DNA of 41,270 nt from a virus (lineage: Duplodnaviria > Caudoviricetes). Position 1 is the stretch's first letter; each line of letters opens with the position of its first letter. The position numbers and the translations under genes were made by a program. The stretch is from the IMG/VR virus record IMGVR_UViG_3300035662_000055, positions 1-41,270 of that record. One strand, written 5' to 3'. Shown piece by piece: positions 3 through 41,270 of the stretch. The notes under the pieces were generated by a model. It saw only the letters and a list, made by a program, of their open reading frames with translations, was not told the origin of the DNA and searched no databases.

Positions 3-3000
3 AGCGAACTATGGCGGGTGATGCTTGAGGAGGCTAGGGCCGCACGGCAGGAAAGCACGTTTCTATCTCGCGTGCTTCGTGCCGGCGAAACCATCGACCC
101 GGCGCGCCACCGACCGGGACTGGAGATTTATTTCCGGTCGCCAATCCCACGTAGCGAACTCGATGCGCTGATCAACAAACTGAACGAAAACGGCGTGGAT
201 TTCTTCACGGTCATTGTTGATGCCCGCCGGAGCACAGAAGCGCAATCTGGAGCGATGGCTGACGCGGTTGGCATCCGCATGCAGTACGTCCCGGAGTTCA
301 TGCAGCGGTATGGAATTGAGGACTTTTCGGGGTTGTCAGAAGCGGAAATCGCAGGTAGAGTGCAGGAGAAAGAAGCGGAGTGGTTATTGCTGGCTGACAA
401 GGTCCGGCGGGTTATGCCGGAGGTGTCATTTGTCGGTGTGTTCTGGCACGAAACTCGGGTCGCATTTGCGGATGCATACGAAAGCGAAATCAATGCAATC
501 ACAACAGGAACGACTACAGGAGATGGTGGACTATCTGCTGGAACACAGTGGGCCGGACAGTCCGTTGGCGAGGGACTTGCAGCAGCAAATCGTTTCGTTG
601 AATCGCGGGCGGCCCGGGCCGAATCCGATGGTGGAGGACAGGTACTTGGCAGGGTTCAAGAAGGGGATCGTGGCGGATTCGCCGAACCAGGCGTAAGAAC
701 TGGATTTGAGCAGGCCGCAGTCGGACCAGCCCGCGGCGGATTCGACCCGCGCACTCTGAACGTCCTCGTCGGCAAGGGTGGCGATGTATCGACGCTCGCG
801 CACGAACTGATCCACCTCCGCGTCGCCGAGTACCTCCGCATGGCGCGTGGCACCACGCCGCCGGCGCGTGTGAACGCCGACCTCGAGACGCTGTTCGGGT
901 TCATGGGCGTGGAGGGCGCGACGTTCCAGGAGCGTCTCGACAACTACGAGACGATGACCATCGACCAGCGCAGGCCGCTGGAGGAGAAGGTCACCTACAA
1001 CTTCGAGATTTACTTGTACGAAGGCAAGGCTCCAAGCGTGGAGCTGCGCGGCGTGTTCGACCGCCTCGCCGCGTGGATGCGCCGCGTGTACAAGTCGATT
1101 CGCGATAACCTGAACGAGATCTATCGCCGCGAGTTCGGCACCGACCTCCCGATCCTCACGCCCGAAGTGCGCTCCGTGTTCGACCGCATGCTCGCTTCCG
1201 AGGAGCAGATCAAGCGGCAGGAGGCCATCGAGGGGATGAAGGGTCTGTTCCAGACACGCGAAGAAGCATTTGCATCTGGCATGGACAATGCCGAGTGGGC
1301 CGCGTACCAGGCCATGCAGCAGGAGGCAACGGAGGCGGCCGTCACCGACCTAAACACCGCAAGCATGCGGCAGGTGCAGTGGCTCGGAAACGCCCGCGCA
1401 CGAATCCTGCGCGACCTCCAGAAAAAGCATGACGCGAAACGCAAGGAGGTCACCGCCGAGGTGGCCGCCGCCGTCAAGGTGGAGCCCGTGTACCGGGCTA
1501 TGACCTACCTGCGCTACGGTCGGTTCGTGGACACGGACGGGGCCGAGGTCGAGGTCGAGGGCACGCACCGCCTGGACATCGAGAAGGTCCGCGCCATGTA
1601 CGCCAGCCTGCCGTCTGCCGAGGGCGTGGAGATGATCCGCGCCACGGGTATGGCCGTGCCGGCGAACGTGCGCCCGGACATCACGCCGCTCGGGACGGGC
1701 AAGTACGGGATGCTCGGCCGCGACGGGCTCGACCCGGACGTGGTGGCCGAGATGTTCGGCTACGGCAGCGGCGACGAGATGGTCCGCGCACTGCTGGCTG
1801 CCAAACCCATGAAGGAGGCCGTGGCCGAGCGGACGGACGCCGAGATGCTGCGGCGCTTCGGCGACATGAACACCCCGGCCGCTCTCGAGGCCGAGGTCCA
1901 GAAGGCGCTCCACAATGAGGCCCGCGCCCGTATGGTCGCAGTGCAGCTGCGGTTCGTGTCCAAGGCGCAGACGCCCGTGCGCGTGATGATGGAGGCCGCC
2001 AAGCAGGTAGCCGCCGACATGATCTCGGACACGACGATCCGCAATCTGCGACCGAACGACTTCGTAGCTGCCGAGGCGCGGGCGGCTAGGGACTCCGAGT
2101 ACCTCGTCAAGTACGAGGCGCAACCGCGCATCCGCGGCCGTGCCGAATATGACCGCGTCCGTCTCGCGGCGCTCGCCGCCGGAAGCACGGAGGAGGACGC
2201 CAGTATCGCCGCCACGGCGGCGCAGGAGGCGTTCATTGCGGCGCAGACGGAGGCTCGGTCGCAGGAGTTCCGCGAGCGGTTCGGGCCGACCACGCCACAG
2301 GAAGCACTGATCCGAGCCCAGCGTGCGCAGCTCTACCAGAACCAGCTCGCAGCCGAGGCGCTCCGCGTGAAGGAGTACGTGGACAAGCAGGTCAAGTACC
2401 TGCGCGGCGTGATGCGCGACAGCAACGTCAAGCGCATGGGTGCCGCTGCGGCCGACCAGGTCGCCGGCCTGCTCGAGCGGTTTGAGGTGGCCCCGGTCAG
2501 CCTCAAGCGTCTTGACGAGCGTCGGTCGATGGCGCAGTTCCTCGCCGACCTCGAGGCCGCTGGCGTGGTGCCGGACATCGCCGAGGAAATCGCGAACGAG
2601 GCCCGCCGCGTCAACTACAAGGAGCTCAAGGTCAGCGAGTTCCGCGACCTGGTGGACGCCGTCAGGCAGATCGAGCACATCGGCAAGAACGAGCAGAAGA
2701 TGCGTCTGGCCGAGGAGCGTGCTGCGTTTGAGGAAGTGCGCGACGATGTGGTTACTCGCATCCGTGCGGTCGGCAAGGTGCGCGAGCTCCAGATCGACCC
2801 TCGTACACCGCTGACCGGGATCGGCCGCACGGCGGCGTTCCTGCGCGGATTTGCGGCGCAGCACCTGAAGGCCGCGTCCATTGCCCGCATCCTTGACGGC
2901 GGCAAGGAGGATGGTCCGCTTTGGAACGCCATCATCCGCACGGCGAACGACGCCTCCGACATGGAGACGCGCATGCGGGCCGAGGCGTCCCTGAAGCTCG

Positions 3001-4772
3001 GCGAGATCCTGAAGCCCGTGTTCGCCCTCGGCGGCATGGGTGGTAAGGGGATGTTCTTCCCGTCCATCAACCGCAGCCTGAACCGCGAGGCTAGGATCGC
3101 CATTGCCCTGAACCTCGGCAACGACGGCAACCGCCAGCGCCTGCTCGACGGCGAGGGCTGGACGCTTGAGCAGCTCCAGCCCGTACTCGAGAGCCTGACC
3201 GAGGCCGAGTGGCTGGCCGTGCAGAAGGTGTGGGACTTTATCGACGGCTACCGCCCGGAGATCGCCGCCAAGGAGCGACGCCTGTACGGCAAGGAGCCCG
3301 AGTGGGTAAAGCCCACCCCGTTCACCGTCCGCACGTCGGACGGCAAGGAGGTCGCCTTGCAGGGCGGCTATTACCCGGTCAAGTACGACCCGGTGGCCTC
3401 CGACCGCGTGGCGACCGTGGACGCCGCAGAAGAAGCCAAGCGCGACCTTCAGGGCGCGTACACGGCGGCCACGACGCGGCGGTCGTTCGTCAAGGCACGT
3501 GCGAAGGAGGTCCGCGATAGGCCGCTCCTGTACACGCTCGACGCCGCCTTCAGCGGTGTCAACGACGTGATCCACGACCTGGCGTGGCACGAGTGGCTCA
3601 TCTCGACGAACCGCCTGCTGCGCGACGTGAAGTTCGCCAACGCCGTCCGCGAGACACGGGGGCCGGAGTTCCTGAAGCAGCTGCGCGACTGGACGAAGGA
3701 CAACGCCACCGGGGCGCGTGGTCAGCAGGTCGCCGGCGAGTCGGTGCTGTCCTGGCTGCGGCAGGGGATCAGCGCGTCGGGCCTCGGGTTCAACGTGGTC
3801 AGCGCGGCCATGCAGGTCACCGGGTTCAACCAGAGCATCGTGCGGGTGGGCGCCAAGTACATCGGGCAGGGCATCGTGCAGTTCTCGACCAGCCCGTTCG
3901 AGTCGGCCAAGACGGTCGCCGAGAAGAGCTCGTTCATGGCCGAGCGTGGCCGCACGCAGTTCCGCGAGATCAACGAGATCAAGAACCGTGTACGCGGACA
4001 GACAGAGGTGGCACGCCGGGTGACGGCTGGCACCTACTTCCTGATGATGAACATGCAGCGGTCGGTGGACATCCCGACGTGGCTCGGCGCGTACCAGAAG
4101 GCGCTCGACGCCGGGAAGGACGATGCCAAGGCCGTGGCGCTCGCCGACCAGGCGGTGCGCGACTCGCAGGGCAGCGGCCTCGTCTCGGACCTCGCGGCCG
4201 TGGAACGCGGCGGTCCTGCCATGAAGCTGTTCACGGTGTTCTACTCGTACATGAACAACGTCTACAACATGACCGCCGTGCAGACGATGACGGCCCGCGG
4301 CAAGGGCAAGCTGGCCGCCGACTACGCCATGCTGCTGGTGGTCCCGGTCGTGCTCGGATACGCCATCAAGAGCGCCATCCAGCCCGACGCCGGCGATGAC
4401 GAACTCGACCCCGAGGCGCTCGCCCGCAAGCTCGCTGCCGAGGAGCTGTCGTACCTGATGGGCACGATGGTGATCGTCCGCGAGTTCGGCGGGGCAGCGC
4501 AGCTCCTGACGGGCGCAGAGGGCGCTCGCATGGGCTACGGCGGCCCTGCCGGCCTCCGGGCCGTGGGCGAGGTCTACGGGCTTGCCACGCAGGCGGGGCA
4601 GCTCGAGTTCGACCGCGCCTTCCGCAGGGCTGCCATCAACACGCTCGGTGCGTTCACCGGGCTCCCGAGCGCCCAGATCAACCGCACCATCGACGGCATT
4701 GAGGCGTTGGTGGAAGGCGAGGTCGAAGGGCCGTCCGCCGTGCTCGCGCCGCTGACTGGCGTGCAGCGTTAG
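3..4772 (+). CDS. Giant polyvalent internal virion (ejection) protein, C-terminal part; 5'-truncated, with 1-1148 an alternative allele
   Basis: The frame is open to the contig edge (track ORF 18..4772, 1584 aa). HELIH zincin motif at 801-815, then a long helical C-terminal region. It sits directly upstream of the tailspike, as the largest internal virion protein does in podoviruses, and continues the ORF starting at 35390 through the circular join. Confidence 0.85.
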   Translation, partial: SELWRVMLEEARAARQESTFLSRVLRAGETIDPARHRPGLEIYFRSPIPRSELDALINKLNENGVDFFTVIVDARRSTEAQSGAMADAVGIRMQYVPEFMQRYGIEDFSGLSEAEIAGRVQEKEAEWLLLADKVRRVMPEVSFVGVFWHETRVAFADAYESEINAITTGTTTGDGGLSAGTQWAGQSVGEGLAAANRFVESRAARAESDGGGQVLGRVQEGDRGGFAEPGVRTGFEQAAVGPARGGFDPRTLNVLVGKGGDVSTLAHELIHLRVAEYLRMARGTTPPARVNADLETLFGFMGVEGATFQERLDNYETMTIDQRRPLEEKVTYNFEIYLYEGKAPSVELRGVFDRLAAWMRRVYKSIRDNLNEIYRREFGTDLPILTPEVRSVFDRMLASEEQIKRQEAIEGMKGLFQTREEAFASGMDNAEWAAYQAMQQEATEAAVTDLNTASMRQVQWLGNARARILRDLQKKHDAKRKEVTAEVAAAVKVEPVYRAMTYLRYGRFVDTDGAEVEVEGTHRLDIEKVRAMYASLPSAEGVEMIRATGMAVPANVRPDITPLGTGKYGMLGRDGLDPDVVAEMFGYGSGDEMVRALLAAKPMKEAVAERTDAEMLRRFGDMNTPAALEAEVQKALHNEARARMVAVQLRFVSKAQTPVRVMMEAAKQVAADMISDTTIRNLRPNDFVAAEARAARDSEYLVKYEAQPRIRGRAEYDRVRLAALAAGSTEEDASIAATAAQEAFIAAQTEARSQEFRERFGPTTPQEALIRAQRAQLYQNQLAAEALRVKEYVDKQVKYLRGVMRDSNVKRMGAAAADQVAGLLERFEVAPVSLKRLDERRSMAQFLADLEAAGVVPDIAEEIANEARRVNYKELKVSEFRDLVDAVRQIEHIGKNEQKMRLAEERAAFEEVRDDVVTRIRAVGKVRELQIDPRTPLTGIGRTAAFLRGFAAQHLKAASIARILDGGKEDGPLWNAIIRTANDASDMETRMRAEASLKLGEILKPVFALGGMGGKGMFFPSINRSLNREARIAIALNLGNDGNRQRLLDGEGWTLEQLQPVLESLTEAEWLAVQKVWDFIDGYRPEIAAKERRLYGKEPEWVKPTPFTVRTSDGKEVALQGGYYPVKYDPVASDRVATVDAAEEAKRDLQGAYTAATTRRSFVKARAKEVRDRPLLYTLDAAFSGVNDVIHDLAWHEWLISTNRLLRDVKFANAVRETRGPEFLKQLRDWTKDNATGARGQQVAGESVLSWLRQGISASGLGFNVVSAAMQVTGFNQSIVRVGAKYIGQGIVQFSTSPFESAKTVAEKSSFMAERGRTQFREINEIKNRVRGQTEVARRVTAGTYFLMMNMQRSVDIPTWLGAYQKALDAGKDDAKAVALADQAVRDSQGSGLVSDLAAVERGGPAMKLFTVFYSYMNNVYNMTAVQTMTARGKGKLAADYAMLLVVPVVLGYAIKSAIQPDAGDDELDPEALARKLAAEELSYLMGTMVIVREFGGAAQLLTGAEGARMGYGGPAGLRAVGEVYGLATQAGQLEFDRAFRRAAINTLGAFTGLPSAQINRTIDGIEALVEGEVEGPSAVLAPLTGVQR
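708..1275 (+). repeat. Copy 1 of a 568-bp direct repeat (copy 2 at 40703-41270)
   Basis: Colinear with no indels. About 50 mismatches in the first 441 nt by manual count, many synonymous; the last 127 nt (1149-1275) are identical to 41144-41270. Confidence 0.95.
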
Positions 4773-4803: not shown

Positions 4804-4827
4804 CCGATACGCCGAGGAACACCCGAG

Positions 4828-10517: not shown

Positions 10518-10536
10518 GGTATGTCTCCTCGTATGG

Positions 10537-11505
10537 TCAGAAGGGCAGATCGTCGGCCGGCACGGTGGCTGGGACGGGTGCCGGTGCGGGAGCGGTGCGG
10601 ATCACGCGCATGATGGTGAGCGCACCCCCGACGCGGGCGATATCAAGCCGCAGCTCGCTGTCGATGGCCTGCTCGCACAGGTCGGCGTACTCGGCGACGG
10701 TAGTGGCGATCCAGGCGGTGCCGTGCTCGCCGGCGGCCTGCACGGCGATGGGCTTGCCGGGGCGGCGGACCACGCGCTGGATCAGGAACAGCCCCTCGTA
10801 CTCCTCGGGGTAGGAGTCAGCGGGCGCGGGAGCCACGGGAGCGGCCGCGGCCTCGGGGGCGGGCGCAGCGAGCGCCTGCCGCGTCGTGCGCTTGCGGACG
10901 GGCTTCGGGGCGTCCTCGGCGATGGGCGCGTCCTGGGGCATCGTGGTGGCTTCCACGACCTCCGGGGCGGGCAGGGCGGCGCGGCTGCGCGGAGCGTCCT
11001 CCATGATCTCCGTCTCGCCGTGTGCCTCGACATATACCGGGGCTGCGCCGAGGGCGTCGGGGCAGTGCTGCTTATAGCCGCTCGAGATGCAGCGGGCGAA
11101 CAGCATCGCCTTCGGCCACTTGCGCCAGTTGTCGCCGCCGAGCTGCGCCCGCCGTGCGTCCTCGAGCGTGAACTCGGTGGTGCCGATCTCCTCCCACTTG
11201 CCCTCCATCGTGCGCCCGAAGAACACGATGCTGCACTCGGTGTCGGAGCACGTGGCGCGGTAGTCGTACTTCCCGGCCCGCTTGATCGACGCTGCCATCA
11301 GGTTGGCGGCCAGGACCGCCTTGCCCTTGATGATGTGCAGCCCAGTCATGGCGTCGTAGTCGGACAGACCAAGCCCGCGACCGATGATGATCTTGGCGCA
11401 CGCCGCCGCCTCGGACTGGATATCGGGAAACATTCCCGATGCCTTGAACACCTGTGCCACCGTCATGGGGTCAAGCTGCGCCTGACCAATTCGTGCAAGT
11501 TCCAT
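10537..11505 (-). CDS. Phage single-strand annealing recombinase (RecT-like)
   Basis: G..LGL....M.GLHIIKGK, W.KWPK.ML.ARCIS motifs; acidic DDLPF tail; adjacent to the Gp157-like gene; GAGGAG SD. Confidence 0.7.
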   Translation of the reverse strand: MELARIGQAQLDPMTVAQVFKASGMFPDIQSEAAACAKIIIGRGLGLSDYDAMTGLHIIKGKAVLAANLMAASIKRAGKYDYRATCSDTECSIVFFGRTMEGKWEEIGTTEFTLEDARRAQLGGDNWRKWPKAMLFARCISSGYKQHCPDALGAAPVYVEAHGETEIMEDAPRSRAALPAPEVVEATTMPQDAPIAEDAPKPVRKRTTRQALAAPAPEAAAAPVAPAPADSYPEEYEGLFLIQRVVRRPGKPIAVQAAGEHGTAWIATTVAEYADLCEQAIDSELRLDIARVGGALTIMRVIRTAPAPAPVPATVPADDLPF

Positions 11506-27641: not shown

Positions 27642-27662
27642 ACCCACGAAAGGGAAACCACA

Positions 27663-28685
27663 ATGGCAGTTCTTTCCAGCACCAACCTGACGCTCGCCGA
27701 TTGGGCGAAGCGCACCGATCCCGAGGGCCGTGTTCCGGTCATCGCGGAACTCCTCTCCCAGTCGAACGAGATCCTCGAGGACTGCGTGTTCAAGGAGGGC
27801 AACCTGCCCACCGGCGAGCGCGTCGTGATCCGCACCGGCCTCCCGGCCGTGTACTGGCGCGCCCTCAACCAGGGCATCCCGAACAGCAAGAGCACGACTG
27901 CCCAGGTCGATGAGGCCTGCGGCATCCTTGAGGCTCGCAGCGAGGTCGATAAGGATCTCGCCATGCTGAACGGCAACACCTCGCAGTTCCGCCTGTCCGA
28001 GGACGTGGCATTCCTCGAAGCCATGAACCAGACGCAGGCGACCACGATGTTCTATGGCAACCCCGCCATCGAGCCGAAGTCGTTCCTCGGCCTCGCGGCG
28101 CGGTACTCGGCGGCCCCCGGCTCGTCGGGCATCGGTCAGAACATCATTGAAGGCGGCGGCACCAGCACCGACAACACCTCGGTGTACCTCGTTGTCTGGG
28201 GCGACAACACCGTCTACTGCCCGTTCCCGAAGGGTTCGACGGCCGGCCTGATGCACGAGGATCTCGGCGAGCAGACCGTCTATGACGGCAACAACCGTCT
28301 CCAGGCTTACGCCACCCGTTATCAGTGGAAGAACGGTCTGGTCGTGAAGGACTGGCGCTACGTTGTCCGCATCGCCAACATCGACGTGAGCGATCTCGTT
28401 GGTGTGACCGGAACGCAGGCCAATACCGCTGCGACCGACCTCGTGAAGCTCATGGCACGCGCCATGTACCGCATCCCGAACATGTCGATGGGCCGTGCTG
28501 CCTTCTACATGAACCGCACCGTCCATAGCGGACTTGCCGTGAAGGCAATGGATCGCAGCCAGAACGTTCTGGCCGTGAATCAGGGTCTGTCGCAGTTCGG
28601 TACCCCCTATTCGTGGCTGTCGTTCCTCGGCGTTCCGTGCCGCCGTGTCGATGCCCTCATCAACGCAGAAGCTCGCCTTACCTGA
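27663..28685 (+). CDS. Major capsid protein (BPP-1 Bbp17-like)
   Basis: TLADWAKR, RTGLP..WR.LN.G, W..GL.V.DWRYVVRIANID, F.GVP.R.VDA; 340 aa. Confidence 0.92.
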   Translation: MAVLSSTNLTLADWAKRTDPEGRVPVIAELLSQSNEILEDCVFKEGNLPTGERVVIRTGLPAVYWRALNQGIPNSKSTTAQVDEACGILEARSEVDKDLAMLNGNTSQFRLSEDVAFLEAMNQTQATTMFYGNPAIEPKSFLGLAARYSAAPGSSGIGQNIIEGGGTSTDNTSVYLVVWGDNTVYCPFPKGSTAGLMHEDLGEQTVYDGNNRLQAYATRYQWKNGLVVKDWRYVVRIANIDVSDLVGVTGTQANTAATDLVKLMARAMYRIPNMSMGRAAFYMNRTVHSGLAVKAMDRSQNVLAVNQGLSQFGTPYSWLSFLGVPCRRVDALINAEARLT

Positions 28686-28709
28686 TAGGTAAGAAAGAAA
28701 GGACACACA

Positions 28710-29228
28710 ATGATTCTTGACCAGAACCTCCGCCTCGGCAACACCGGGGCTATCACTTCGGCCGCCACGTACATCACCGGCACCAGCGGCACGCCGGACG
28801 TGGTCGATCTCCAGAGCAACACCGCCTACACCGCCACGGTGAGCGGCTCGCTCTACACGGTCGGCCAGGGCACCCAGAACCGAGACATCGGCGAGGGCCG
28901 CGACCTCTACGTGCTGTTCACCGTCACGACCGCCCTCGCGGGCGGCACGAACGCCACGTTCCAGGTGGTCGCCTCCTCGTCCTCCACGCTTGCCTCCGGC
29001 AACATCGTGGTCGGCGAGGTCGGCGTCATCACCACCGCGAACCTCGCTGCTGGCCGGCAGGTCGTGGTCCGCATCAGCCCGCAGCAAATCGCTGCTGCTG
29101 GCCTGCGATACCTCGGCGCGCAGGTCGTGACCACCGGCACCCACACCGCCGGCGTCATCAGCGCGGACATCGTCATGGACATCCAGGACGGTCGTGCGGT
29201 GTACGCGTCCGGCTTCACGGTCGCCTGA
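28710..29228 (+). CDS. Capsid cement protein (Bbp16-like)
   Basis: Follows the capsid gene; DL..RDIGEG..LY..V, RYL......GT.TAG.I.A.IV.D. Confidence 0.8.
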   Translation: MILDQNLRLGNTGAITSAATYITGTSGTPDVVDLQSNTAYTATVSGSLYTVGQGTQNRDIGEGRDLYVLFTVTTALAGGTNATFQVVASSSSTLASGNIVVGEVGVITTANLAAGRQVVVRISPQQIAAAGLRYLGAQVVTTGTHTAGVISADIVMDIQDGRAVYASGFTVA

Positions 29229-30208: not shown

Positions 30209-32908
30209 ATGGCGCTGACCCGCACGTACACACGGTCCTTCGCGGGCGGCGAGGTGTCGCCCGAGATGTGGGGGCGGATCGATGACGTGAAGTTCCAGAC
30301 GGGCGCGGCGAAGTTGCTCAACTTCATCGCGCTGCCGCAGGGGCCGGCAGAGAACCGACCCGGCACGGCGTTCGTGCGCGAGGTCAAGGACAGCACGAAG
30401 CGCACGCGCCTGCTTCCGTTCACGTTCAGCACCACGCAGACGCTGGTGCTCGAGCTTGGCGCGGGGTACTTCCGGTTCCACACGCAGGGTGCGACGCTCG
30501 GTCCTGGGACGCCTGCCGCATACAACGGTGCCACGACTTATGCGGTCGGTGCTCTCGTCTCGTCTGGCGGAGTGAACTACTACTGCATTGCGGCGACCAC
30601 AGGCAACGCGCCTCCGAACGCCACATATTGGTACGCGCTTCCGGCAGGGATCTACGAGATCCCGAATCCCTACGCCGAGGCCGACCTGTTCGACATCCAC
30701 TACGTGCAGTCGGCTGACGTGCTGACGCTTGTCCATCCGAACTACGCACCGCGTGAGCTGCGCCGGCTGGGGGCAACCACGTGGACGCTGACTACGATTT
30801 CGTTTGCTTCGACCGTCACGTCACCGACAAGCGTGACGGTGACCGCAAATCGAGGCGAAGCGCTTGACCTCATCGGATTCACTTCCGCGAATCCAGGCGT
30901 CGCACATACGACCGCACCGCATGGATTGTCGGTTGGAGATCCGGTCTACCTTGATGGCGGAACGTGGACGAATCCATTCCCTGATGACTACTACATCGTT
31001 TCTCACATAAGTGCCGGAGACAAGTTCCGCGTCCGCACATACAGCAGCGGAATCGAACTTGATACGACATCCTATGGAACGTGGTCGAGCGGCGGATATG
31101 TCCAGTTCGGCGACAAGGCGCTTGACTTCACCAGTTACTACGTTGTCACCACGGTCGCTCCGAACGGTATTGACGAGAGTGCGCCGAGTTCCGCGGCGAC
31201 TGCGAACAACAACCTGAACGCGCAGGGATCGAGCAATACAATTACGTGGTCTGCTGTGTCAGGAGCTGCTCGTTACAACATCTACAAGCGCCAGAACGGA
31301 CTGTACGGCCTGATCGGACAGACCGACCTCACGACATTCACCGACAACAACATCGGGCCGGACCTCGGAATTACTCCTCCAATCGTCGATACGGTATTTG
31401 CGTCAAGCGGAAACTACCCTGGTGCAGTCAGTTACTTTGAGCAGCGCCGCGTGTTTGCCGGCACGACGAATGCGCCGCAGACGCTGTGGATGACGCGCAC
31501 TGGCACCGAGAGCGACATCTCGTACCACATCCCGCTTCTTGACACCGACCGCATTGCATTTCGTGTCGCTGCCCGCGAGGCCAATACGATCCGCCACCTC
31601 GTCCCGCTGACGCAGCTGCTCGCGCTGACGAGCGCCGCCGAGTGGCGCGTGAGCCCGGTGAACAGCGACGTGATCTCGCCGACCACGATCTCGGTGCGTC
31701 CGCAGTCCTACGTCGGTGCGAACAACGTGCAGCCGTCCATCGTGAACAACACGGTGGTGTACTGCTCTGCCAGAGACGGCCACGTGCGCGAGCTTGGCTA
31801 TTCCTGGCAGGCGAGCGGGTTCGTGACTGGTGACCTGTCGATCAGGGCCACGCACCTGTTCGACAATTTCGACATCACGGACATGTGCTACAGCAAGGCT
31901 CCGCAGCCGCTGCTGTGGTTCATCTCGAGCACGGGAAGCATGCTCGGACTGACGTACATCCCCGAACAGCAGATCGGTGCATGGCACCAGCACGAAACGG
32001 ATGGCGACTTTGAGTCGTGCGCGGCCGTGGCCGAGGGTGCCGAGGACCGTCTGTACGTCATCGTCAAGCGGACCATCGGTGGCAACACGAAGCGATACGT
32101 GGAGCGGTTCGCAAGCCGGCAGGTCGGCGAGTTGAAGGACTGCTTCTTCGTGGACAGCGGCCTGACCTACAACGGAACGAACACGACTGCCACCACGGTC
32201 ACGGTAACGGGCGGCACGACTTGGGGTCCGGCCGACGTGCTGACGATTACAGCGAGCAGCGCCATCTTCCAGTTCCCGGCGACCACCGACGTGGGCGACG
32301 CCATCGTCCTGACCGATGCCAACGGAAACACCTATCGCCTGACGATCCTGTCCACGACCTCCACGACGGTCGCTACGGCCCGAACGGACCTCATCCTGCC
32401 TGTGGCCCTGCGCGGGGTGGCGACGGCTGTGTGGGCGTTTGCACGCGACACGGTGGCCGGCCTGACGCACCTCGATGGCAAGACGGTCAGCATCCTTGCT
32501 GACGGAGCGGTTATGCCGCAGGTCACGGTGACGGGTGGGGTGGCCGTGTTGCAGCGGCCGTCCGTGGTCGTGCATGTCGGTCTGCCCTACGTCAGCGACC
32601 TCGAGACGCTGCCGATGGCGCTCCAGATGGAGGCGTTCGGGCAGGGCCGCGCAAAGAACGTCAACGAGGCATTCCTGCGCGTATATCGCTCGAGCGGAAT
32701 CTTCGTCGGCCCCGACGCCGACAATCTCGTCGAGGCCAAGCAGCGCACCACGGAGCCATACGGCTCGCCGCCTGGGCTCAAGACGGACGAGATCGGCGTG
32801 AAGCTCACGCCCACGTGGCGGCAGGCGGGGCGCGTCTACGTGCGGCAGTCGGACCCGCTCCCGCTGACCATCGTTGGGCTGACCCTTGAAGTGAGCATCG
32901 GAGGCTGA
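30209..32908 (+). CDS. Tail nozzle / tubular protein B (T7 gp12-like)
   Basis: SFAGGE.SP...GR.D, QG....RPGT.FV, YP..V.YFEQR..FAG, AWH.H.TDG, Q..PLP.TI; 899 aa. Confidence 0.9.
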   Translation: MALTRTYTRSFAGGEVSPEMWGRIDDVKFQTGAAKLLNFIALPQGPAENRPGTAFVREVKDSTKRTRLLPFTFSTTQTLVLELGAGYFRFHTQGATLGPGTPAAYNGATTYAVGALVSSGGVNYYCIAATTGNAPPNATYWYALPAGIYEIPNPYAEADLFDIHYVQSADVLTLVHPNYAPRELRRLGATTWTLTTISFASTVTSPTSVTVTANRGEALDLIGFTSANPGVAHTTAPHGLSVGDPVYLDGGTWTNPFPDDYYIVSHISAGDKFRVRTYSSGIELDTTSYGTWSSGGYVQFGDKALDFTSYYVVTTVAPNGIDESAPSSAATANNNLNAQGSSNTITWSAVSGAARYNIYKRQNGLYGLIGQTDLTTFTDNNIGPDLGITPPIVDTVFASSGNYPGAVSYFEQRRVFAGTTNAPQTLWMTRTGTESDISYHIPLLDTDRIAFRVAAREANTIRHLVPLTQLLALTSAAEWRVSPVNSDVISPTTISVRPQSYVGANNVQPSIVNNTVVYCSARDGHVRELGYSWQASGFVTGDLSIRATHLFDNFDITDMCYSKAPQPLLWFISSTGSMLGLTYIPEQQIGAWHQHETDGDFESCAAVAEGAEDRLYVIVKRTIGGNTKRYVERFASRQVGELKDCFFVDSGLTYNGTNTTATTVTVTGGTTWGPADVLTITASSAIFQFPATTDVGDAIVLTDANGNTYRLTILSTTSTTVATARTDLILPVALRGVATAVWAFARDTVAGLTHLDGKTVSILADGAVMPQVTVTGGVAVLQRPSVVVHVGLPYVSDLETLPMALQMEAFGQGRAKNVNEAFLRVYRSSGIFVGPDADNLVEAKQRTTEPYGSPPGLKTDEIGVKLTPTWRQAGRVYVRQSDPLPLTIVGLTLEVSIGG

Positions 32909-32909
32909 T

Positions 32910-33623
32910 ATGAGCATGTTCGGATTGAGTCCAGCGATGCAGATGGCAACGAACTTCCCGGTTCAGAGCCGTGCAGTTGGCACGATGCTTGGCGGGCCGA
33001 CGCCATCTGGCCCTGGGTTCGCATCGCAGTTCGCCAGTGCCATGACGGTCGCTGGCCCCATCGCGGGCATCTTCGGGTCGATTACGGGCGCCATCGGCTC
33101 GTTCTACGCTGCACAGAGCCAGCAGAACCAACTCAAGATGCAGGCCCAGAACCAGCGGTTCGCGGCCGAGATGGGGCGGATCAACCAGCGTGCCGCCGAG
33201 TTCACGGCAGGGCAGATCGGCCGCGAGGGCGCGGCTCGGTTCGGGCAGTACTCCATGCGGGCGGGGCAGGCGCGTGCAAGCGCACAGGCCGCACTCGCTT
33301 CCCGTGGTGCCGTCCTCGGCGCAGGCAGCGCAAAGGAGATCATCGGCAGCATGGATCTCGTCAAGGAGATCGACCGCCTGAACATCAACGCCGCCACCGT
33401 GCGCGAGCAGGAGGCGGCCCGCCTGCGGGCGTTCAACATCGGGGTCGGTGCCACGATGGCCGACATCTCCGCGCAGAACCTACAGGCGACCGCCGGCACG
33501 ATCTACCCCGGCCTCGCGCTCGGGACGAGCCTCCTCGGCAGCGCCACCGACATTGCCACCACCTGGGCCCGCAACCGCCGCATCGAGGAGCTGCTCGAGG
33601 GCGTGTCCACGCAGAGGATCTGA
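32910..33623 (+). CDS. Internal virion protein (gp14-like position)
   Basis: Gly/Ala-rich hydrophobic segments with a Gln-rich helical middle; follows the nozzle. Confidence 0.75.
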   Translation: MSMFGLSPAMQMATNFPVQSRAVGTMLGGPTPSGPGFASQFASAMTVAGPIAGIFGSITGAIGSFYAAQSQQNQLKMQAQNQRFAAEMGRINQRAAEFTAGQIGREGAARFGQYSMRAGQARASAQAALASRGAVLGAGSAKEIIGSMDLVKEIDRLNINAATVREQEAARLRAFNIGVGATMADISAQNLQATAGTIYPGLALGTSLLGSATDIATTWARNRRIEELLEGVSTQRI

Positions 33624-33626
33624 CCC

Positions 33627-35393
33627 ATGCCGACCGTACCGACCACCTTCGTCCCGCAGGTCGCCCCGCAGGGGGGCGGCGACATCGGCGACTTCGCAGC
33701 CCCCGGCATCGCGCCTGCGGAGAACCTCGCGGGGCCACAGGTCGCACGGTTTGGTCAGCAGCTCACCCAGACGGGCATGGCAGCCTTCCGGCTCGGCTCG
33801 GCGATCCAAGACGGCATCGACGAGGCCAAGACCAAGGAAGCCGACGTAGCGGCCGGCAGGGGCATGCAGGCCGTGACTGATAAGTACATGGCGATGATCG
33901 GCAAGGACGCCGAGGTGAACTACGACGCCATGCAGGCCGAGCTGTCGCAGGCAGGGCAGTCGGCGATGGGGATGCTCGACAACGACGTGCAGCGGCGGAT
34001 GCTCTCCCCGATCCTCGCCCGGAACATGGGGATCTTCCAGAGCCGAATGGGCCAGCACCGCGTCCAGCAGCTCCGCGTCTACCAGACGAACGAGGCCACG
34101 GCCCGCGCCGAGTTGAGCGCCGACTACGCGATCCAGGCGTACTCGCAGCGCAGCCTCAAGGACGCCGAGGGACGCCCGGTTGGGCTCATCAACTACGCGG
34201 CCAACGCAGACACGGCCATCGCCGAGATTCGCAAGGCCGGCGAGCTCATGGGCTACGCGCCTGACTCGGCGCAGATGAAGCAGCTCGAGCAGAAGGTGTA
34301 CGACCGGATGGCGGTCGGGATCGTGAACGGTCTGATGTCAGAGAAGGAATACTCGCAGGCCAGCGAGTTCCTGTCCGACTCGGCGACCGTCGAGAGCCTT
34401 GACGCCAAGACGCGGCAGGCGCTGACCGAATCGGTGGAGTCGAATCGCCAGCGGTCGGTGGTCGGCGAACTGGCATCGAGCATCAAGAACATGGGGCTTC
34501 TGGTGTCCAAGAGCGACCCGGAAACCTACTGGCAACAGAAGGATGGCCCGGTCGAACCTCCGACCACGTTGCGCGATGCGCTTGTGCTATCGGAACAGAT
34601 CAAGGACGATCAGACTCGCAAGTTTGTCCAGGCCGAATTGCGGACGCAGTTCGCGCAGGACGATGCACTGATTGAACAGGAAAACCGCATTCTGATTGAC
34701 AATGTTGAGCAGTTTCTCGCGGTGCCAGGAAACACGCTTGCCGATCTTCCGCCTGAACAATTCGGCCGCCTACGGCCCGTTGACAGAGCCAAGTACATGG
34801 CCGGCCAGCGGCAGCAGGACGAGATGACGGTAATGGAGCAGGTCGCACGTAACCCGTCGCTCGTGGCCGAAGGTGACTGGCTTGAGCGAAACCGCAACAA
34901 GATGACGCACGCGACCTTCGTCAAGTTGATGTCGGAGCGCACGAAGCCCGAAAAGATCATCGAAGCACAAGTTGACGCGGACGACATCAATCGCCTGCTA
35001 GTGGACTTTGGCATGGACAGATACGTCGGCTCCAAACCAGGCACAAAGGAACAGCAGGCGAGCCTTATCTTCCGAAACAATGTCACGCAGATGATTGAAG
35101 TGCGTCAGCGCGAGCGCGGCGGAAAGATCAGCCCAGACGAGAAACGCGAAATCATCCGCAAGGCCATTGTGGACGAGGCATACGTTTCCATCGCATGGGC
35201 CAGTGATCGCAGGATGCCCGTCTCCATGATGACCCAGGAAGAACTAGGAAAGGCGTACTACGATATTGGCGACCAAGAGATTCCAATTGTGCAATATCGC
35301 GTAGCTGAACAACAGCTCATGCGCGCTGGAATTGCCACGCCGACAGAATCGCAGATCCTTGAATACTGGACCCGGAAGGGCAAGCCGAAGTGA
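33627..35393 (+). CDS. Internal virion protein (gp15-like position)
   Basis: MP.VPT start, 588 aa predicted helical; between the small and giant internal proteins. Confidence 0.75.
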   Translation: MPTVPTTFVPQVAPQGGGDIGDFAAPGIAPAENLAGPQVARFGQQLTQTGMAAFRLGSAIQDGIDEAKTKEADVAAGRGMQAVTDKYMAMIGKDAEVNYDAMQAELSQAGQSAMGMLDNDVQRRMLSPILARNMGIFQSRMGQHRVQQLRVYQTNEATARAELSADYAIQAYSQRSLKDAEGRPVGLINYAANADTAIAEIRKAGELMGYAPDSAQMKQLEQKVYDRMAVGIVNGLMSEKEYSQASEFLSDSATVESLDAKTRQALTESVESNRQRSVVGELASSIKNMGLLVSKSDPETYWQQKDGPVEPPTTLRDALVLSEQIKDDQTRKFVQAELRTQFAQDDALIEQENRILIDNVEQFLAVPGNTLADLPPEQFGRLRPVDRAKYMAGQRQQDEMTVMEQVARNPSLVAEGDWLERNRNKMTHATFVKLMSERTKPEKIIEAQVDADDINRLLVDFGMDRYVGSKPGTKEQQASLIFRNNVTQMIEVRQRERGGKISPDEKREIIRKAIVDEAYVSIAWASDRRMPVSMMTQEELGKAYYDIGDQEIPIVQYRVAEQQLMRAGIATPTESQILEYWTRKGKPK

Positions 35394-38300
35394 TTGAGCC
35401 GAACATCAACGAGCGCATGGCGCGTTTCGCGCCTTCGCAAGCGCAGGATGACGTTGATCCGATTGCATCGGATATTGCATCTCGCTCCGTTGTTGCGACT
35501 TCGCAACCAACGATGGAGATGCCAGACATTGATCCCATCGCTCGCCAAATCGCCGAAAACGACCGCGAATCGCTCAATGCCGCCGTACTCGGTGCCAGAA
35601 CTGTCAACCCGGACGAAGCCGCACGGGCGATCGAGATGGGAAGGAAGGTCGGTGTCCCTGCGGAAGTAGCGCGTGCGGACATGCAACGGGCCGAGCAGCA
35701 GGCATACTTGTCCGACCTGCGCTCAATGGACTTCCTCCGCACTGACCCGGTCATGGCGAACTTCCTTGCCAACAAACAGTTCGCGGAGACAGCGCACGAC
35801 GATATTGGCATCCTCGCCAAGCTCCAGCCGCTGGTCTTTGAGGCTGCGACGCTCCAGACCCCGGGCGGATTCTTCCGCGTGGTCGGTCGAGGATATGAGC
35901 GCGGGCAGATCGTGTCAGAGCGCGGAGACATCGGTGCGAAGGCAATGGCCGGGTTCGCCGAGCAGGGCGACTTCGACCGTGCAAAGCAGTTGCAGGAGCG
36001 CATGCAGCAACTCGGGCAGCAGGGTTTACTCGGGGCAGCCGCCGAGATGATCGCACAGAACGTCAGCCAGCTCCGAACCATCGGCACGACGGCCGCCGGC
36101 GGCGCTGCCATCGGAAGCTTCGCTGGTCCTGTCGGAACCGTGACTGGTGGAGCACTCGGCACTGCCGCAGGCATCGTGATCGGGACTGGAACGATGGAGG
36201 CCGGGAACCTGTACCTCGACATGCGCGATCAGGGCGTGTCCGATGACGTGGCTATCCCGGCAGCCATCGCCGGCGGGTTCTTGAACGGCGTGATCGAAGT
36301 GGTCGGGATGAAGATCGCATCCGCCCCGTTCAAGGCGCTTGCGTCCAAGGTCATCCGCGAGGAGGTGTCCAAGGCCATCGCGCAGCCGACCATGCGCTCG
36401 GCACTCATTGCCGCTGGCAAGGCGTATGGGCTTCAGGTTGGCGGAGAGGCGGCCGAGGAAGGGTTGCAGGAGATCGTTGCCATCGCGTCCGAGGAGATCG
36501 CCAAGGCGGCGGATGGCATTGACAGCGAGACGAGCCTGCGCGAGGCTACTGGCCGCGTCATTGAAGCGTTCGCATATGGCGGCATGGCGTCTGCTCTGCT
36601 CGGTGGCATCGGACCAGGCGCGAACCTCGTCGTTGATCTGCGCCGCGCTAGCGCCACGCAGCGGCAGCAGGCGTTCTTCGATGGCCTCGTCGAGAACCGC
36701 AAGGAAAGCAAGCTTGCCCAGCGCAACCCGCAGGGATACGAGCGTTTCCTTGCCGCACAGGCCCAGGACACGCCGGCAGAGACGATCTACGTAGACGCGG
36801 CCACCGCCCGTGACGTGCTCGCGCAGAGCGGCACCACGACGGCGCAGCTCGAGGACATCCTCCCTGGCATCCGCGAGCGGCTCGAGAAGGCCGTGGAGAC
36901 GGGAGGCGACGTGACGATCCCGACTTCGCAGTTCGGGGCGAGGCTCGTCAACACGGAACTCGGGAACGCGCTGCTGCCGCACATGCGCTTGTCGCCGGAG
37001 GCCATGAGCGCGACCGAAGCGCAGGCGTTTGAGGCGCAGCGTCAGGCCGTGGTGGAGGAGGCTCGGACGATCCTCGCCACGAAGCAGGAAGCCGACGCTG
37101 CGTTCGTCGCCGAAGCGCAGCAGGTTGAGAACGAAGCGTTCGAGCAGGTCCGTTCGGTCGGCCAGTTCACCGACATCGAGGCGCGGACGATTGCCAAGCT
37201 GCGCCAGGCGATGGTGGTCGTTGACGCCGCCGAGGCCGGGATGACGCCTGCCCAGTACCAGCGCGAGCGCGGCGTGCCGCTGGTCATTCGCGGCGAGGGC
37301 ATGGCGGCGCCAATGGCGCAGGCTGCACAAATTACGCTTGCGGATGTTGAAAGATCATTTGCGGAAATCGGTGTAGAGCAGCGTCTTACGGAAACTGACA
37401 CGACAATCCGACCAGGAATTATTCGTGTGCCAGCGGACCTGCGGGGTGAAGGACGGGCAACACGGGCGATGCAAAGCCTAATTGCATACGCCGATCAAGC
37501 AGGAAAGCGAATTGATATCTCTCCGACTGGTGAATTCGGTGCAAACAAGAAGCGACTAGTTGCGTGGTACAAGCGCCTTGGATTTGTTGAAAACAAGGGT
37601 TCCAACAAGGACTTTGCGATCAGCGCGACAATGTATCGGCTTCCATCTGCGCCGATGCTTCGACAGGCCGCCACGCTTGACGCCGACTACCTAGCCGCTG
37701 TCGAGCGCGGCGACATGGAAACTGCGCAGCGCATGGTGGACGAAGCCGCAGACGCGGCTGGATACACGGTTGCGGGATTCCACGGATTGTCGGAAGGCAA
37801 GCTTGAAGGTGATTCATTTGATCCAAAGCGGCTTGGTAATTTCACAGGAGCACCAAGCGCAAGGCTTGGATTTTTCTTTTCCAAGTCGATTGGTACTGCT
37901 GAAACTTATGGAATGCCGCGCCTTCGCCCGGATGTGGTTGAAATAATTGCCAGTCGGCTACAACGCGCATATGAGCCGCTCATAAACGCGATTCCTGAAG
38001 GCGTTCAAACGGTAGGACTAGCGCAGGAGCTGTCTTACGGAGAGAACGCATTTAACCCATATATGCAAGAGGGGGCCGAGACGGATCGCATCAGCGCGGA
38101 AAACTATTTGCCGAATCTTGAAGGCTTGTCAGAAGCAATTCTGAATGATGTGCTGGAGATGGAGGATGATCCTGAAGTATCCAAGAGAACCTTCCAAAAG
38201 CTTCTCCGGCTTGAAAAACAAGCCAACGCAGAAGTACAGAAGGTCGTTACCGAATACACGAACTCGGGCGAGCATCTTGATATTTCCACCGTGTCTGTTC

Positions 38301-41270
38301 GCTTGCGGATGCAGAATCCATTGGTGTACGACCAAGAAGGTGCCGCATACCGCGACGAGTCGTATTACGACATCATCGGGCGAGCAAAGCAACAGGGCCA
38401 CGATGGCGTCATCATCAAGAACACGTATGACGGCGGTCCGCTTGATGATATTTACGTTGTGTTTGAGCCAGAGCAGATCAAGAAAGCCGACCCCGTCACC
38501 CGCGACGAGGCTGGCAACGTCGTCCCGCTGTCGCGCCGCTTTGACATCACTAGCCCGAAGCTGTTTGAGCAGGCGGCGATGTCAACTCGCGTTCCGACCG
38601 CAGTCAAGCCGCTTGAAGATGCTCTGAATGACATCTTGCTTGCGGACTATCCGACTTTCCTTCAGGATGCCAAGTTCGTCGCAAAGAACCTTGCGAAGTT
38701 CAAGCAGCTTGGAGCGCCGATTCGCATTGACGAAACGGCAACAGAGCAGCAGCAGCTCGAGCAGATCATCGAGCACATGTCCGGCAACTTGCTGTGGCTG
38801 CACGACACGATGGATGCAGACATTCGTGAGCGTGCAAAGATGTGGTATGTCGGCGGAAGGCGTCTCGTTGACTGGCTTGCGGAACGTCATGGCTTGTCTC
38901 CGATGCAGGCTGCGACAGTGTTCGCGGTCTTGTCTCCGCAAAAGAACTGGTACGAGAACGTCGGACTCGGTATTCGGATTATCGACATCGTTGCAACCCA
39001 GGGCGACACGAAGATGGACACGGATATGCAGGAGGCATATCTGTCATCGCTTCGCAAGGAAGTGACGAAGCGCCAAGGTCAGCTTGACAAGCATGATGAG
39101 AAGAGGCCAAAGCGCGGAAAGGCAGAAACCGCGAAATGGCAAGAACAGCGCGATGAAATTACCGAGGCGCTTAATGCGGCAGCGTCCAAGGTGAACGAAG
39201 CGCAGGGAAACATCGACGATATTGGAGGTCGCACGCTCGACGAAGTATTGGCAGCACGTGAGTTCTTCCTTGCTGCGATCATGGTCAGATGGTTCGACCA
39301 GACGAAGAATGACAGGACATATCCGGTCATCAGCCCAGAAGGCGGCGTCGGCAGTCCGATGGTCACGGAAGCTGGTACGCCGGCAAGCATTCGTTATGGA
39401 AGCTACAACGAGGTCGCGAAGGCAATTGCCGCATACGTGGATGGGCGTGCAGAGAACGTCCACCTGTTGATCGGCGGCGAGCACAAGGTCAGAAACTTCT
39501 ACAACAACTTGTTCAATCCGGCAGACCCGCGCTTCGCAACGATTGACACCCATGCAATCGCTGCCGCATATCTGATGCCACTTGCCGGCACTGATGCTCT
39601 TGTGGCGCACGGACTTGGTGGAGGGGTTGGCAACGCGATGTTCGGACTTGGCGGCGGCTATGCGGTGTTCTATGAGGCATACCGTCGAGCTGCCGAAGCC
39701 AGGGGAATTGATCCTCGCGAGATGCAGTCCATCACTTGGGAGGCAATTCGCGGCATGTTTGAGGCCGCAATGAAGGGGGGCCTCAAGGCTCCAGTCGCGG
39801 CAATTTGGAAGCGATACGTCGATGGCGAGATCGATATCGACACGGCTCGTGCGGAGGTAATGCAGCGGGCAGGCGGGATCACCACGCCGTCGTGGGTTGC
39901 TCTCCCGGTTGACATGCAACCAAATGCTGGGTATTCGGGCGTGTCACGAACGGCGGCAGACGAGCAGGCAAAGAATCTTGCGGCAGAACCTACCGCTGCG
40001 GCCATCATGTTTGAAGTGGCACCAGATCCTGCGAATGAAGAACTCACGGCAAAGTGGAAGGCGCTATCGCCGTTGCGCCGGCAGGAAATCAGCGTTCGCG
40101 TTGCTGAAACAATTGTTCCTCGAGTGCTTCAGGAATACGGAATCGCGGCCGACATGGTGTTGCAGGTCGGTGGTTGGAAGGGCGATACGAATGTCGGATT
40201 TGCGTTGCGAATGCCTCCGAGCCCGCTGGTTCGCCAGATCGCTCGTGCAATTGGCGAATCGCTTTCACAGGAAGGAATGTTCTCGATCTCTGCTACGGAG
40301 TTCAAGGGCTCTTCCAAGACGGGCATCATTAGGTTGCAGTTGCAGCCGGGGTTGACGCCGGAACAGATCGGCGATCTTTACGGAAACACGCTGTATCCGC
40401 TTGGAATCCAAGGGCACGCGACATTTGAGGATTCGATGGTTATTGCCCTGGATTCAAGTGTTGATACTGATGTACTTGCGCGTACAATTGCGCAGGCCGT
40501 ATCTGGAGACAACCGCGTCACTGGAATCACGCAATATGAAGGATGGAGCTCTTACGATGAAACAAGAATCACCACGCCTGCTCCAAGTGCAGAAGGGAAG
40601 CAGCGAGGAGTTGAAGGCGCTGCTGGGCGACGGCGTATTGATGTTTACCGCCTCGAAGCAAAGCGACTCGTCGAGCAATACCTCGGAGAATCTCCAATCC
40701 TCGAGCAGGCCGCAGTCGGCCCTGCCCGCGGCGGCATCGACCCGCGAACCCTGAACGTATTCGTCGGCAAGGGCGGTGACGTATCGACGCTCATCCACGA
40801 GCTGATCCACCTCCGCATCGGCGAGTACCTCCGCATGGCGAGAAGCGCCACGCCGCCGGCGCGGGTGGCCGCCGACCTCGACATCCTGTTCGATTTCATG
40901 GGCGTGGAAGGCGCAACGTTCCAGGAACGCCTCGACAACTACGAGACGATGTCCATTGAGCAGCGCAGGCCGCTCGAGGAGAAGGTCACCTACAACGCGG
41001 AGATATACGTCTACGAGGGCAAGGCTCCAAGCGTGGAGCTCCGCGGCGTGTTCGACCGCCTCGCCGCGTGGATGCGCCGCGTGTACAAGTCGATCCGCGA
41101 TGACCTGAACGCGATCTACCGCCGCGAGTTCGGCACCGACCTGCCGATCCTCACGCCCGAAGTGCGCTCCGTGTTCGACCGCATGCTCGCTTCCGAGGAG
41201 CAGATCAAGCGGCAGGAGGCCATCGAGGGGATGAAGGGTCTGTTCCAGACACGCGAAGAAGCATTTGCAT
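35390..41270 (+). CDS. Giant polyvalent internal virion protein, N-terminal ~1,960 aa (runs off the window; continues at 1276 via the circular join; total ~3,125 aa)
   Basis: GTG at 35390 overlaps the upstream stop. Frame checked at 37313, 37631, 38522, 39962, 40682 and 41141; presumably missing from the ORF track because it has no stop. Contains GNAT, ART-like and glycosylase-like modules and HELIH at 40796-40810. Confidence 0.88.
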   Translation, partial: MIEPNINERMARFAPSQAQDDVDPIASDIASRSVVATSQPTMEMPDIDPIARQIAENDRESLNAAVLGARTVNPDEAARAIEMGRKVGVPAEVARADMQRAEQQAYLSDLRSMDFLRTDPVMANFLANKQFAETAHDDIGILAKLQPLVFEAATLQTPGGFFRVVGRGYERGQIVSERGDIGAKAMAGFAEQGDFDRAKQLQERMQQLGQQGLLGAAAEMIAQNVSQLRTIGTTAAGGAAIGSFAGPVGTVTGGALGTAAGIVIGTGTMEAGNLYLDMRDQGVSDDVAIPAAIAGGFLNGVIEVVGMKIASAPFKALASKVIREEVSKAIAQPTMRSALIAAGKAYGLQVGGEAAEEGLQEIVAIASEEIAKAADGIDSETSLREATGRVIEAFAYGGMASALLGGIGPGANLVVDLRRASATQRQQAFFDGLVENRKESKLAQRNPQGYERFLAAQAQDTPAETIYVDAATARDVLAQSGTTTAQLEDILPGIRERLEKAVETGGDVTIPTSQFGARLVNTELGNALLPHMRLSPEAMSATEAQAFEAQRQAVVEEARTILATKQEADAAFVAEAQQVENEAFEQVRSVGQFTDIEARTIAKLRQAMVVVDAAEAGMTPAQYQRERGVPLVIRGEGMAAPMAQAAQITLADVERSFAEIGVEQRLTETDTTIRPGIIRVPADLRGEGRATRAMQSLIAYADQAGKRIDISPTGEFGANKKRLVAWYKRLGFVENKGSNKDFAISATMYRLPSAPMLRQAATLDADYLAAVERGDMETAQRMVDEAADAAGYTVAGFHGLSEGKLEGDSFDPKRLGNFTGAPSARLGFFFSKSIGTAETYGMPRLRPDVVEIIASRLQRAYEPLINAIPEGVQTVGLAQELSYGENAFNPYMQEGAETDRISAENYLPNLEGLSEAILNDVLEMEDDPEVSKRTFQKLLRLEKQANAEVQKVVTEYTNSGEHLDISTVSVRLRMQNPLVYDQEGAAYRDESYYDIIGRAKQQGHDGVIIKNTYDGGPLDDIYVVFEPEQIKKADPVTRDEAGNVVPLSRRFDITSPKLFEQAAMSTRVPTAVKPLEDALNDILLADYPTFLQDAKFVAKNLAKFKQLGAPIRIDETATEQQQLEQIIEHMSGNLLWLHDTMDADIRERAKMWYVGGRRLVDWLAERHGLSPMQAATVFAVLSPQKNWYENVGLGIRIIDIVATQGDTKMDTDMQEAYLSSLRKEVTKRQGQLDKHDEKRPKRGKAETAKWQEQRDEITEALNAAASKVNEAQGNIDDIGGRTLDEVLAAREFFLAAIMVRWFDQTKNDRTYPVISPEGGVGSPMVTEAGTPASIRYGSYNEVAKAIAAYVDGRAENVHLLIGGEHKVRNFYNNLFNPADPRFATIDTHAIAAAYLMPLAGTDALVAHGLGGGVGNAMFGLGGGYAVFYEAYRRAAEARGIDPREMQSITWEAIRGMFEAAMKGGLKAPVAAIWKRYVDGEIDIDTARAEVMQRAGGITTPSWVALPVDMQPNAGYSGVSRTAADEQAKNLAAEPTAAAIMFEVAPDPANEELTAKWKALSPLRRQEISVRVAETIVPRVLQEYGIAADMVLQVGGWKGDTNVGFALRMPPSPLVRQIARAIGESLSQEGMFSISATEFKGSSKTGIIRLQLQPGLTPEQIGDLYGNTLYPLGIQGHATFEDSMVIALDSSVDTDVLARTIAQAVSGDNRVTGITQYEGWSSYDETRITTPAPSAEGKQRGVEGAAGRRRIDVYRLEAKRLVEQYLGESPILEQAAVGPARGGIDPRTLNVFVGKGGDVSTLIHELIHLRIGEYLRMARSATPPARVAADLDILFDFMGVEGATFQERLDNYETMSIEQRRPLEEKVTYNAEIYVYEGKAPSVELRGVFDRLAAWMRRVYKSIRDDLNAIYRREFGTDLPILTPEVRSVFDRMLASEEQIKRQEAIEGMKGLFQTREEAFA
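40703..41270 (+). repeat. Copy 2 of the 568-bp direct repeat (copy 1 at 708-1275)
   Basis: Begins at GAG CAG GCC GCA (EQAA); the last 127 nt are identical to 1149-1275. Confidence 0.95.

Follow-up and report, generated by a model that had tools for sequence, protein, structure and literature searches.

Hydrophobic-x-Gln junctions in the cassette array of a Bbp10-like phage ejection protein with a predicted metallopeptidase

The window, a stretch of 41,270 nucleotides of phage DNA, ends within a giant virion gene whose product carries a string of enzyme modules, punctuated by a short Gln-Ala-Ala (QAA) motif and followed by an HExxH peptidase motif. The original prediction read QAA as the cleavage site that releases the modules, as the microhomology by which they are exchanged, or as both. 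Which of these roles does the motif have, and how far does it reach beyond this phage? We examined both questions in the window and in its relatives.

The giant ejection gene and its cassettes

The window is a BPP-1-like podophage. Its gene set comprises terminase (22730), portal (24886), a gene in the scaffold position (26946), capsid (27663), tail tube genes, three ejection-type genes and tail fibres. The final 127 bases of the window are identical to bases 1149-1275, which indicates a circular genome of about 40.1 kb and leaves 1-1148 as the arm of a second allele, in support of the original reading of this region. On the plus strand this arm holds the end of a different cassette (L003 type), a junction motif with its Gln codon at 711 and a diverged copy of the peptidase. 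The phage was found in lake metagenomes (24/24 among the runs listed). Long antisense ORFs at 36026-37330, 1350-4940, 26820-29144 and 31403-32917 (all minus strand) overlie high-GC3 genes and are probably shadows of codon bias.

Three genes follow the nozzle gene, and the giant gene is the last of them. Its 5' part occupies 35390..41270 (plus strand) and, via the 127-nt terminal overlap, the gene resumes at 1149-4772, giving 3125 codons by arithmetic. It contains an LPD22 domain (35585..35827, plus strand; Pfam PF18834, E 1.7e-13) and a constant C-terminal region (1149..4772, plus strand; phrog_9880, E 0) that is likely part of the ejection channel. The gene order nozzle, small, medium, giant, tail fibre is common to the window and BPP-1, and the peptidase region is 36.8% identical to that of BPP-1 Bbp10 over 96% of the peptidase query (E 6e-24). 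The giant gene is orthologous to that of Bbp10 in Bordetella phage BPP-1. Bbp10 resembles the T7 ejection protein gp16, and the accessible text of Hardies et al. (PMC4819975) gives it as an IVP-D (T7 gp16) homologue. By analogy, from gene position and this IVP-D assignment, the giant protein is likely to be packaged and injected with the DNA. It belongs to the phage-type polyvalent-protein class: terminase, portal, capsid and tail genes lie upstream of its gene, as expected of a late gene, and it combines LPD22, ART-PolyVal, DUF7178 and a weak GNAT, to which relatives add PBECR5 and PFIN-like cassettes. The polyvalent proteins described in the accessible text of Iyer 2017 (PMC5512222) likewise unite LPD22, ART-PolyVal, GNAT-like and MPTase domains in one late virion protein.

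Four junction motifs lie on the plus strand of the giant gene, at 37313..37327 (Gln codon at 37319), 37658..37672 (37664), 38564..38578 (38570) and 40700..40714 (40706), in addition to that of the second allele. All the motif positions first noticed were correct on recheck, and the HELIH motif indeed starts at 40796, exactly 30 codons from the Gln codon at 40706. The AT-rich stretch of codons described between high-GC3 flanks was borne out by GC3 values of 0.82 before the cassettes, 0.44, 0.58 and 0.60 in the three cassettes and 0.87 after them. The cassette zone, 1136 aa long, contains five copies of QAA (shuffle mean 0.77, P=0.0004), and the 640-aa N-flank and the 1352-aa C-flank contain none; for [LFM]xQAA, four copies were seen versus 0.10 expected. 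Two other sites that had been put forward were rejected as junctions. DEQAK (Q39965), proposed as a weak border, is not conserved in homologues, and the domains on either side mostly move together. SPMQAA (Q38906), proposed as a motif copy inside a module, has Pro two places before the Gln, where the motif needs a hydrophobic residue, and falls within predicted helix 110-120 when mapped on the DUF7178 model; it does not qualify as a copy of the motif.

The motifs delimit three cassettes, all on the plus strand. Cassette 1 (37322..37666, 115 aa) is GNAT-like, with a Pfam Acetyltransf_7 match below cut-off (E 0.0044). Cassette 2 (37667..38572, 302 aa) is an ART-PolyVal domain above cut-off (PF18760, E 5.8e-11), in which conserved end caps surround a variable core. 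Cassette 3 holds two domains, DUF7178 (38573..39889) and an unassigned one at 39995..40591. This second domain and the second-allele domain at 3-452 share a Gly-aromatic...Gln pattern reminiscent of SAM lyases; the lead is a weak one, comprising one weak Pfam match in 12 proteins (PF23780, E 0.034) and a non-significant profile comparison. Cassettes across the QAA clade include ART-PolyVal, PBECR5, PFIN-like, GNAT-like and DUF7178 domains and many without an assigned domain; ART-PolyVal was above cut-off in 7 of 23 scanned cassettes and just under it in one more.

The model of DUF7178 (pLDDT 93.6) suggests an HhH-GPD DNA-glycosylase-like fold. Over most of its length it can be superposed on 8-oxoG glycosylases, endonuclease III, Mag1 and DUF2419, an enzyme of queuine salvage (Z 8.9 to 6.4), the best match being the T. 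maritima 8-oxoG glycosylase (Z 8.9, rmsd 3.8, 186 aligned). Against four glycosylases the scores were 8.9, 7.1, 7.1 and 6.4 over most of the domain, which is middling for a helical protein. Lys305, Asp325 and His327 are invariant; HhH-GPD enzymes use a catalytic Lys and Asp, to which Lys305 and Asp325 may correspond. DUF7178 also occurs in phage proteins of 490-760 aa without the peptidase. A literature search found no mention of DUF7178, and an Atlas search returned DUF7178 clusters and unnamed clusters only.

The junction motif and cassette exchange across the family

Family scans started from 289 loci, of which 280 had an HExxH-bearing ORF (223 distinct); four loci with a profile match but no HExxH match and five without a match were dropped. 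From 217 proteins, 94 representatives under 70% identity were drawn. In 85 of these 94, [LFYM]xQ occurred in the 31 residues before the second strand of the peptidase, versus 25% of random windows, and the controls hydrophobic-x-Glu, -Asn and -Lys and small-x-Gln were at or under their nulls in the same representatives. The true signature is hydrophobic-x-Gln, and QAA is the version of this clade; the original prediction had missed this family-wide reach. Held-out proteins found via the C-terminal region (from 79 loci, after exclusion of duplicates of known loci, four truncated and two frame-broken ones) had an intact HExxH and the motif in 37/37 cases. In a profile-search set the last motif was found in 135/148, a figure biased by the Gln column that the profile holds. 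The motif at the first junction was present in 68/79 (null 29%), 30/32 and 119/126 proteins of three sets. The last motif was absent in 9 of the 94 representatives, and both end motifs were absent in 2/79. The spacing from the Gln to the His of HExxH ranges from 19 to 42 residues, as would be expected of a linear motif.

Five cassette-start signatures, internal to the cassettes and independent of the motif, had the motif upstream in 68/68 distinct contexts, and a looser cassette-end signature had it in 41/61. The boundary enrichment in homologues by which the original idea could be checked is strongly supported by these cassette starts and by the breakpoints described below. Cassettes begin 2-10 residues past the Gln. 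By eye, the motif was also found at cassette ends in the cultured phages Caulobacter Jess A, Cobetia Carin-1, Limnohabitans DC33 and BPP-1, Bbp10 having a single cassette of ~150 aa between two motifs. Prophages and phages from many host groups retain the motif. As a pattern, hydrophobic-x-Gln is short and common and is also found inside domains, and the residues after the Gln are loosely conserved across the family. In one relative (L019), a truncated cassette is fused to the peptidase and the fusion point lacks the motif. Tandem motif copies of six to seven residues form mini-cassettes in five relatives (L002, L006, L011, L039 and L211).

Cassette content varies among phages that are nearly identical, and also inside individual lake samples. 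In the QAA clade, the array start could be located in 29 of 57 proteins, and division at the motif yielded 54 cassettes, which fell into 29 types; some first cassettes escaped the strict pattern, and copies of 6-7 residues were each scored as a type. The 20 proteins with complete 5' ends had 20 distinct cassette strings. The proposal that the modules are swappable is thus strongly supported, and the invariant domain content that would speak against it was not seen. Breakpoints between proteins cluster at the motif: among 65 non-redundant proteins, 120 of 301 supported sites lay within 6 aa of [LFM]xQ versus 36 expected, and when all sites were counted, 170/672 lay within the same distance of [LFM]xQ versus 81 expected, with five control patterns flat. 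At the DNA level, 56/219 breakpoints lay within 15 nt of the motif versus 12 expected, with peaks at 0, +4 and +7. Most of the other 163 fell where the conserved ART-cassette caps end, in the first linker or in cassette interiors, pointing to exchange at a second level. Contigs from four lake runs diverged at 37664, 38577 and 708-711; contigs joined 38577 to 40706 in one of the four and 37278 to 37664 in two, and the cassette of the second allele was covered in one, a low coverage that is no evidence of its absence from the others. The likeness used for these runs was 88-90%, and some contigs may stem from related phages.

ART cassettes have fixed N- and C-terminal caps (37667-37760 and 38486-38572 here) around a swappable core, and a caps-only cassette of 61-63 aa occurs in six relatives (L009, L010, L013, L039, L072 and L212). 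A RecT-like single-strand annealing protein (10537..11505, minus strand; phrog_561, E 6.5e-9) is a candidate agent of cassette exchange. Its gene and an adjacent Gam-like gene together occupy 10011-11505 (minus strand), likely as a recombination module. A further gene at 14131-15705 (minus strand) has low GC3 (0.47), a phrog_11143 match and ABC-ATPase-like and acetyltransferase-like parts, and has the appearance of a recent acquisition.

The predicted peptidase and the position of the array

After the array, 40727..41245 (plus strand) encodes the C-terminal part of a predicted zincin-like metallopeptidase, with two strands, HELIH (40796-40810) and a predicted third ligand, the Glu encoded at 40979. 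The H, E and H of HExxH and the downstream E are invariant in 94/94 representatives. The model of this part (pLDDT 88.6) shows two strands of three or more residues and two helices, and the HExxH motif and the later Glu both lie on helices, as in zincins. Its fold search gave no match at E<=0.001 in 'pdb', a wide search gave only helical hairpins (Z<=5.9), and no zincin was among the fold matches of this half domain. Sequence searches of the PDB with four alignments returned no credible match, Pfam gave no match on seven cassette-free members, and the Pfam zincin matches among the 94 representatives were all sub-threshold (such as Tox-MPTase4 in six and Peptidase_M78 in two). Because fold and Pfam searches gave no solid zincin, the case for the predicted peptidase activity comes from the invariant HExxH...E pattern and from published profiles of Bbp10. 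In the accessible text of Lenart et al. (PMC3650047), residues 700-1000 of Bbp10 served as a seed for CLCA_X, which is sister to the self-cleaving CLCA metalloproteases. The CLCA_X consensus HExxHxxxD, with its Asp after HExxH, was not found here: the window has Gly at that position and Bbp10, the CLCA_X seed, has Glu.

Before the array, a conserved helix-helix-strand was recognized with a family-wide profile at 37172..37300 (plus strand). It closes the N-flank in 179/225 proteins, at 30 to 2222 residues from HExxH. Seven natural cassette-free proteins have 30-39 residues between the helix-helix-strand and HExxH, six of them with one motif in between, in a loop that would belong to the zincin fold, and two further cassette-free proteins occur in the set found via the C-terminal region. 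According to the accessible text of Iyer 2017 (PMC5512222), the MPTase core consists of an N-terminal helix, three strands and two helices. Since the post-array model has only two strands, we infer that the missing helix and first strand lie before the array, in the helix-helix-strand. On this view the array would be inserted between strands 1 and 2 of the zincin, and the peptidase would be split by its own cargo. The original prediction, which placed the peptidase after the last module, missed this apparent interruption of the peptidase domain by the array.

For DUF7178, the motif was upstream in 18/18 peptidase-bearing proteins versus 6/120 short homologues (the best 120 of 339; 119 without peptidase; 23 clusters at 70% identity). 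This association of motif and peptidase is a correlation, not proof. Among relatives, no dead peptidase was found as a sole copy, and one degenerate extra copy was found in P0259. A search for natural splits at the motif gave only frame breaks elsewhere or truncated contigs. Several partial or degenerate peptidase copies occur in P0124, P0125 and P0259, some with long inserts between the HExxH and third-ligand helices.

Reading of the motif and its significance

Taken as a whole, the reading that we consider fairly probable is as follows. The full-length protein would be packaged and then ejected, full-length packaging being suggested by the need of the cassettes for a carrier. The two peptidase halves would fold together, and the predicted enzyme would cut its own chain at the junctions, probably after the Gln. 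Cuts would free the GNAT, ADP-ribosyltransferase and glycosylase-like domains, leaving them with ends close to native, and the freed domains would act on the host in early infection; cutting after ejection rather than in the head is favoured. Recombination, probably RecT-assisted, between short Gln-Ala-Ala codon stretches or cassette caps would generate new in-frame strings, of which selection would retain those with intact motifs. A bolder, family-wide form is that the peptidase folds and switches on only after the whole array has entered the cell and then cuts every hydrophobic-x-Gln junction; we put this forward tentatively, as possible but rather doubtful.

Could the motif instead be a DNA microhomology or recombination scar that merely keeps swaps in frame? 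The breakpoint peaks near the Gln codon (0, +4 and +7 nt), the RecT-like gene and an agreement slightly above chance between the first and last motifs of one protein at P3 and P1' (32 and 14 of 58, p ~0.01, kinship uncorrected) would suit such a scar, as would codon choice: in 78 QAA-clade contexts, which were chosen by protein pattern and include three that are not true junctions, Gln is encoded by CAG in 70 and CAA in 8, exceeding the 67% CAG of cassette interiors (p=3e-6). However, junction CAG use matches that of the flanks (88.5%, p=0.45), and both Ala positions use all four Ala codons. In the wide family the Gln codons are CAG in 50 and CAA in 35, with 19 different DNA 5-mers, yet the amino-acid pattern survives at ~30% identity. 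This freedom at synonymous positions places selection on the protein; for the same reason, a conserved DNA site independent of coding, as in site-specific recombination cassette systems, was not found. We regard the scar alone as very unlikely. Comparison of amino-acid with synonymous conservation, a check attached to the original prediction, came out on the side of the protein. Among the three roles that it offered, 'both' fits best: the QAA codons coincide with many crossovers, and the DNA-only reading is not supported. In the QAA clade, the motif is best described as a protein signal doubling as in-frame microhomology.

If the motif is a protein signal, it might still be bound without being cut, as a docking, threading or packaging signal on a single beads-on-a-string polypeptide. 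The accessible text of PMC5512222 provides precedents in the MPTase-bearing N4 virion RNA polymerase, ArdC and TraC1, which are packaged or transferred uncut; the two residues before the Gln form a short strand or bridge in the single-chain model, and the looseness of the residues after it also suits an uncut signal. We nevertheless consider this unlikely, given zinc ligands and a catalytic Glu that are invariant in all representatives and kept in cassette-free proteins with one motif, and cassette starts shortly after the Gln that fit released products. Cutting by another protease, from the phage head or the host, seems to us decidedly unlikely. T4 gp21, which cleaves after Glu within a hydrophobic-x-Glu triplet, offers a precedent, and the gene before the capsid gene (26946-27641) matches phrog_458, labelled 'protease'. 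This gene, however, has no Pfam or NCBIfam match, occupies a T7-like scaffold position and lacks [FLM]xQ[ASG], and retention of the motif across many host groups fits a single host protease poorly. The phrog_458 label on this gene may be wrong. The least likely of these alternatives is that the Gln motif is a structural part of a peptidase loop, with internal copies as relics copied along with insertions. Cassette-free proteins do carry the motif in the loop before the conserved strand, and the short tandem copies exist; but the distance from motif to HExxH varies by more than 20 residues, and internal copies are kept at both cassette ends in distant lineages, unlike relics.

Self-processing, the reading that we prefer, has antecedents. 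For phage polyvalent proteins, autoproteolytic release was proposed and an analogy with viral polyproteins drawn in Iyer 2017, in whose accessible text no cleavage site is named (PMC5512222); the injection model is restated in the accessible part of PMC9503650. P1 DdrB, as cited in the former text, is an MPTase-bearing virion protein reported to be processed to 76 kDa and cut before packaging; it resembles the present protein but lacks a cassette array. As a site comparison DdrB was set aside, showing no clear hydrophobic-x-Gln near residue 700 by eye. The accessible texts of PMC4819975 and PMC3650047 leave cassettes and motifs of Bbp10 unmentioned, and Bbp10 has one cassette versus three here. 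A preprint on phi24B (10.64898/2026.04.10.717836), in its accessible part, reports a 2811-aa polyvalent protein detected in virions and suggests that its peptidase attacks peptidoglycan. Neither a description of the junction motif nor virion proteomics of BPP-1 or Carin-1 was found in the mostly open-access literature searched.

In MARTX toxins and the polyproteins of positive-strand RNA viruses, an internal protease frees variable effectors at short repeats, by a similar working. Those systems use cysteine proteases and act in eukaryotic cells, whereas the phage protein has a zinc motif and targets bacteria; it is not a member of either.

What is new here is the family-wide junction code and an array that apparently lies inside the peptidase. 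Self-processing of polyvalent proteins has been predicted since 2017, and the hydrophobic-x-Gln junctions supply candidate sites for it. The motif makes cassette boundaries readable from sequence throughout a family of great size (9,742 clusters at E<=1e-10 in a profile search), for which Jess A, Carin-1, DC33 and BPP-1 are cultured phages suited to direct tests. The cassettes also expose a pool of uncharacterized domains, among them the glycosylase-like DUF7178, that would act against the host at an early stage, and cassette alleles coexist within one lake population. If its family-wide form were true, the giant protein would be a self-timing effector magazine, reloadable by recombination and with a readable cleavage code, across thousands of Bbp10-family clusters.
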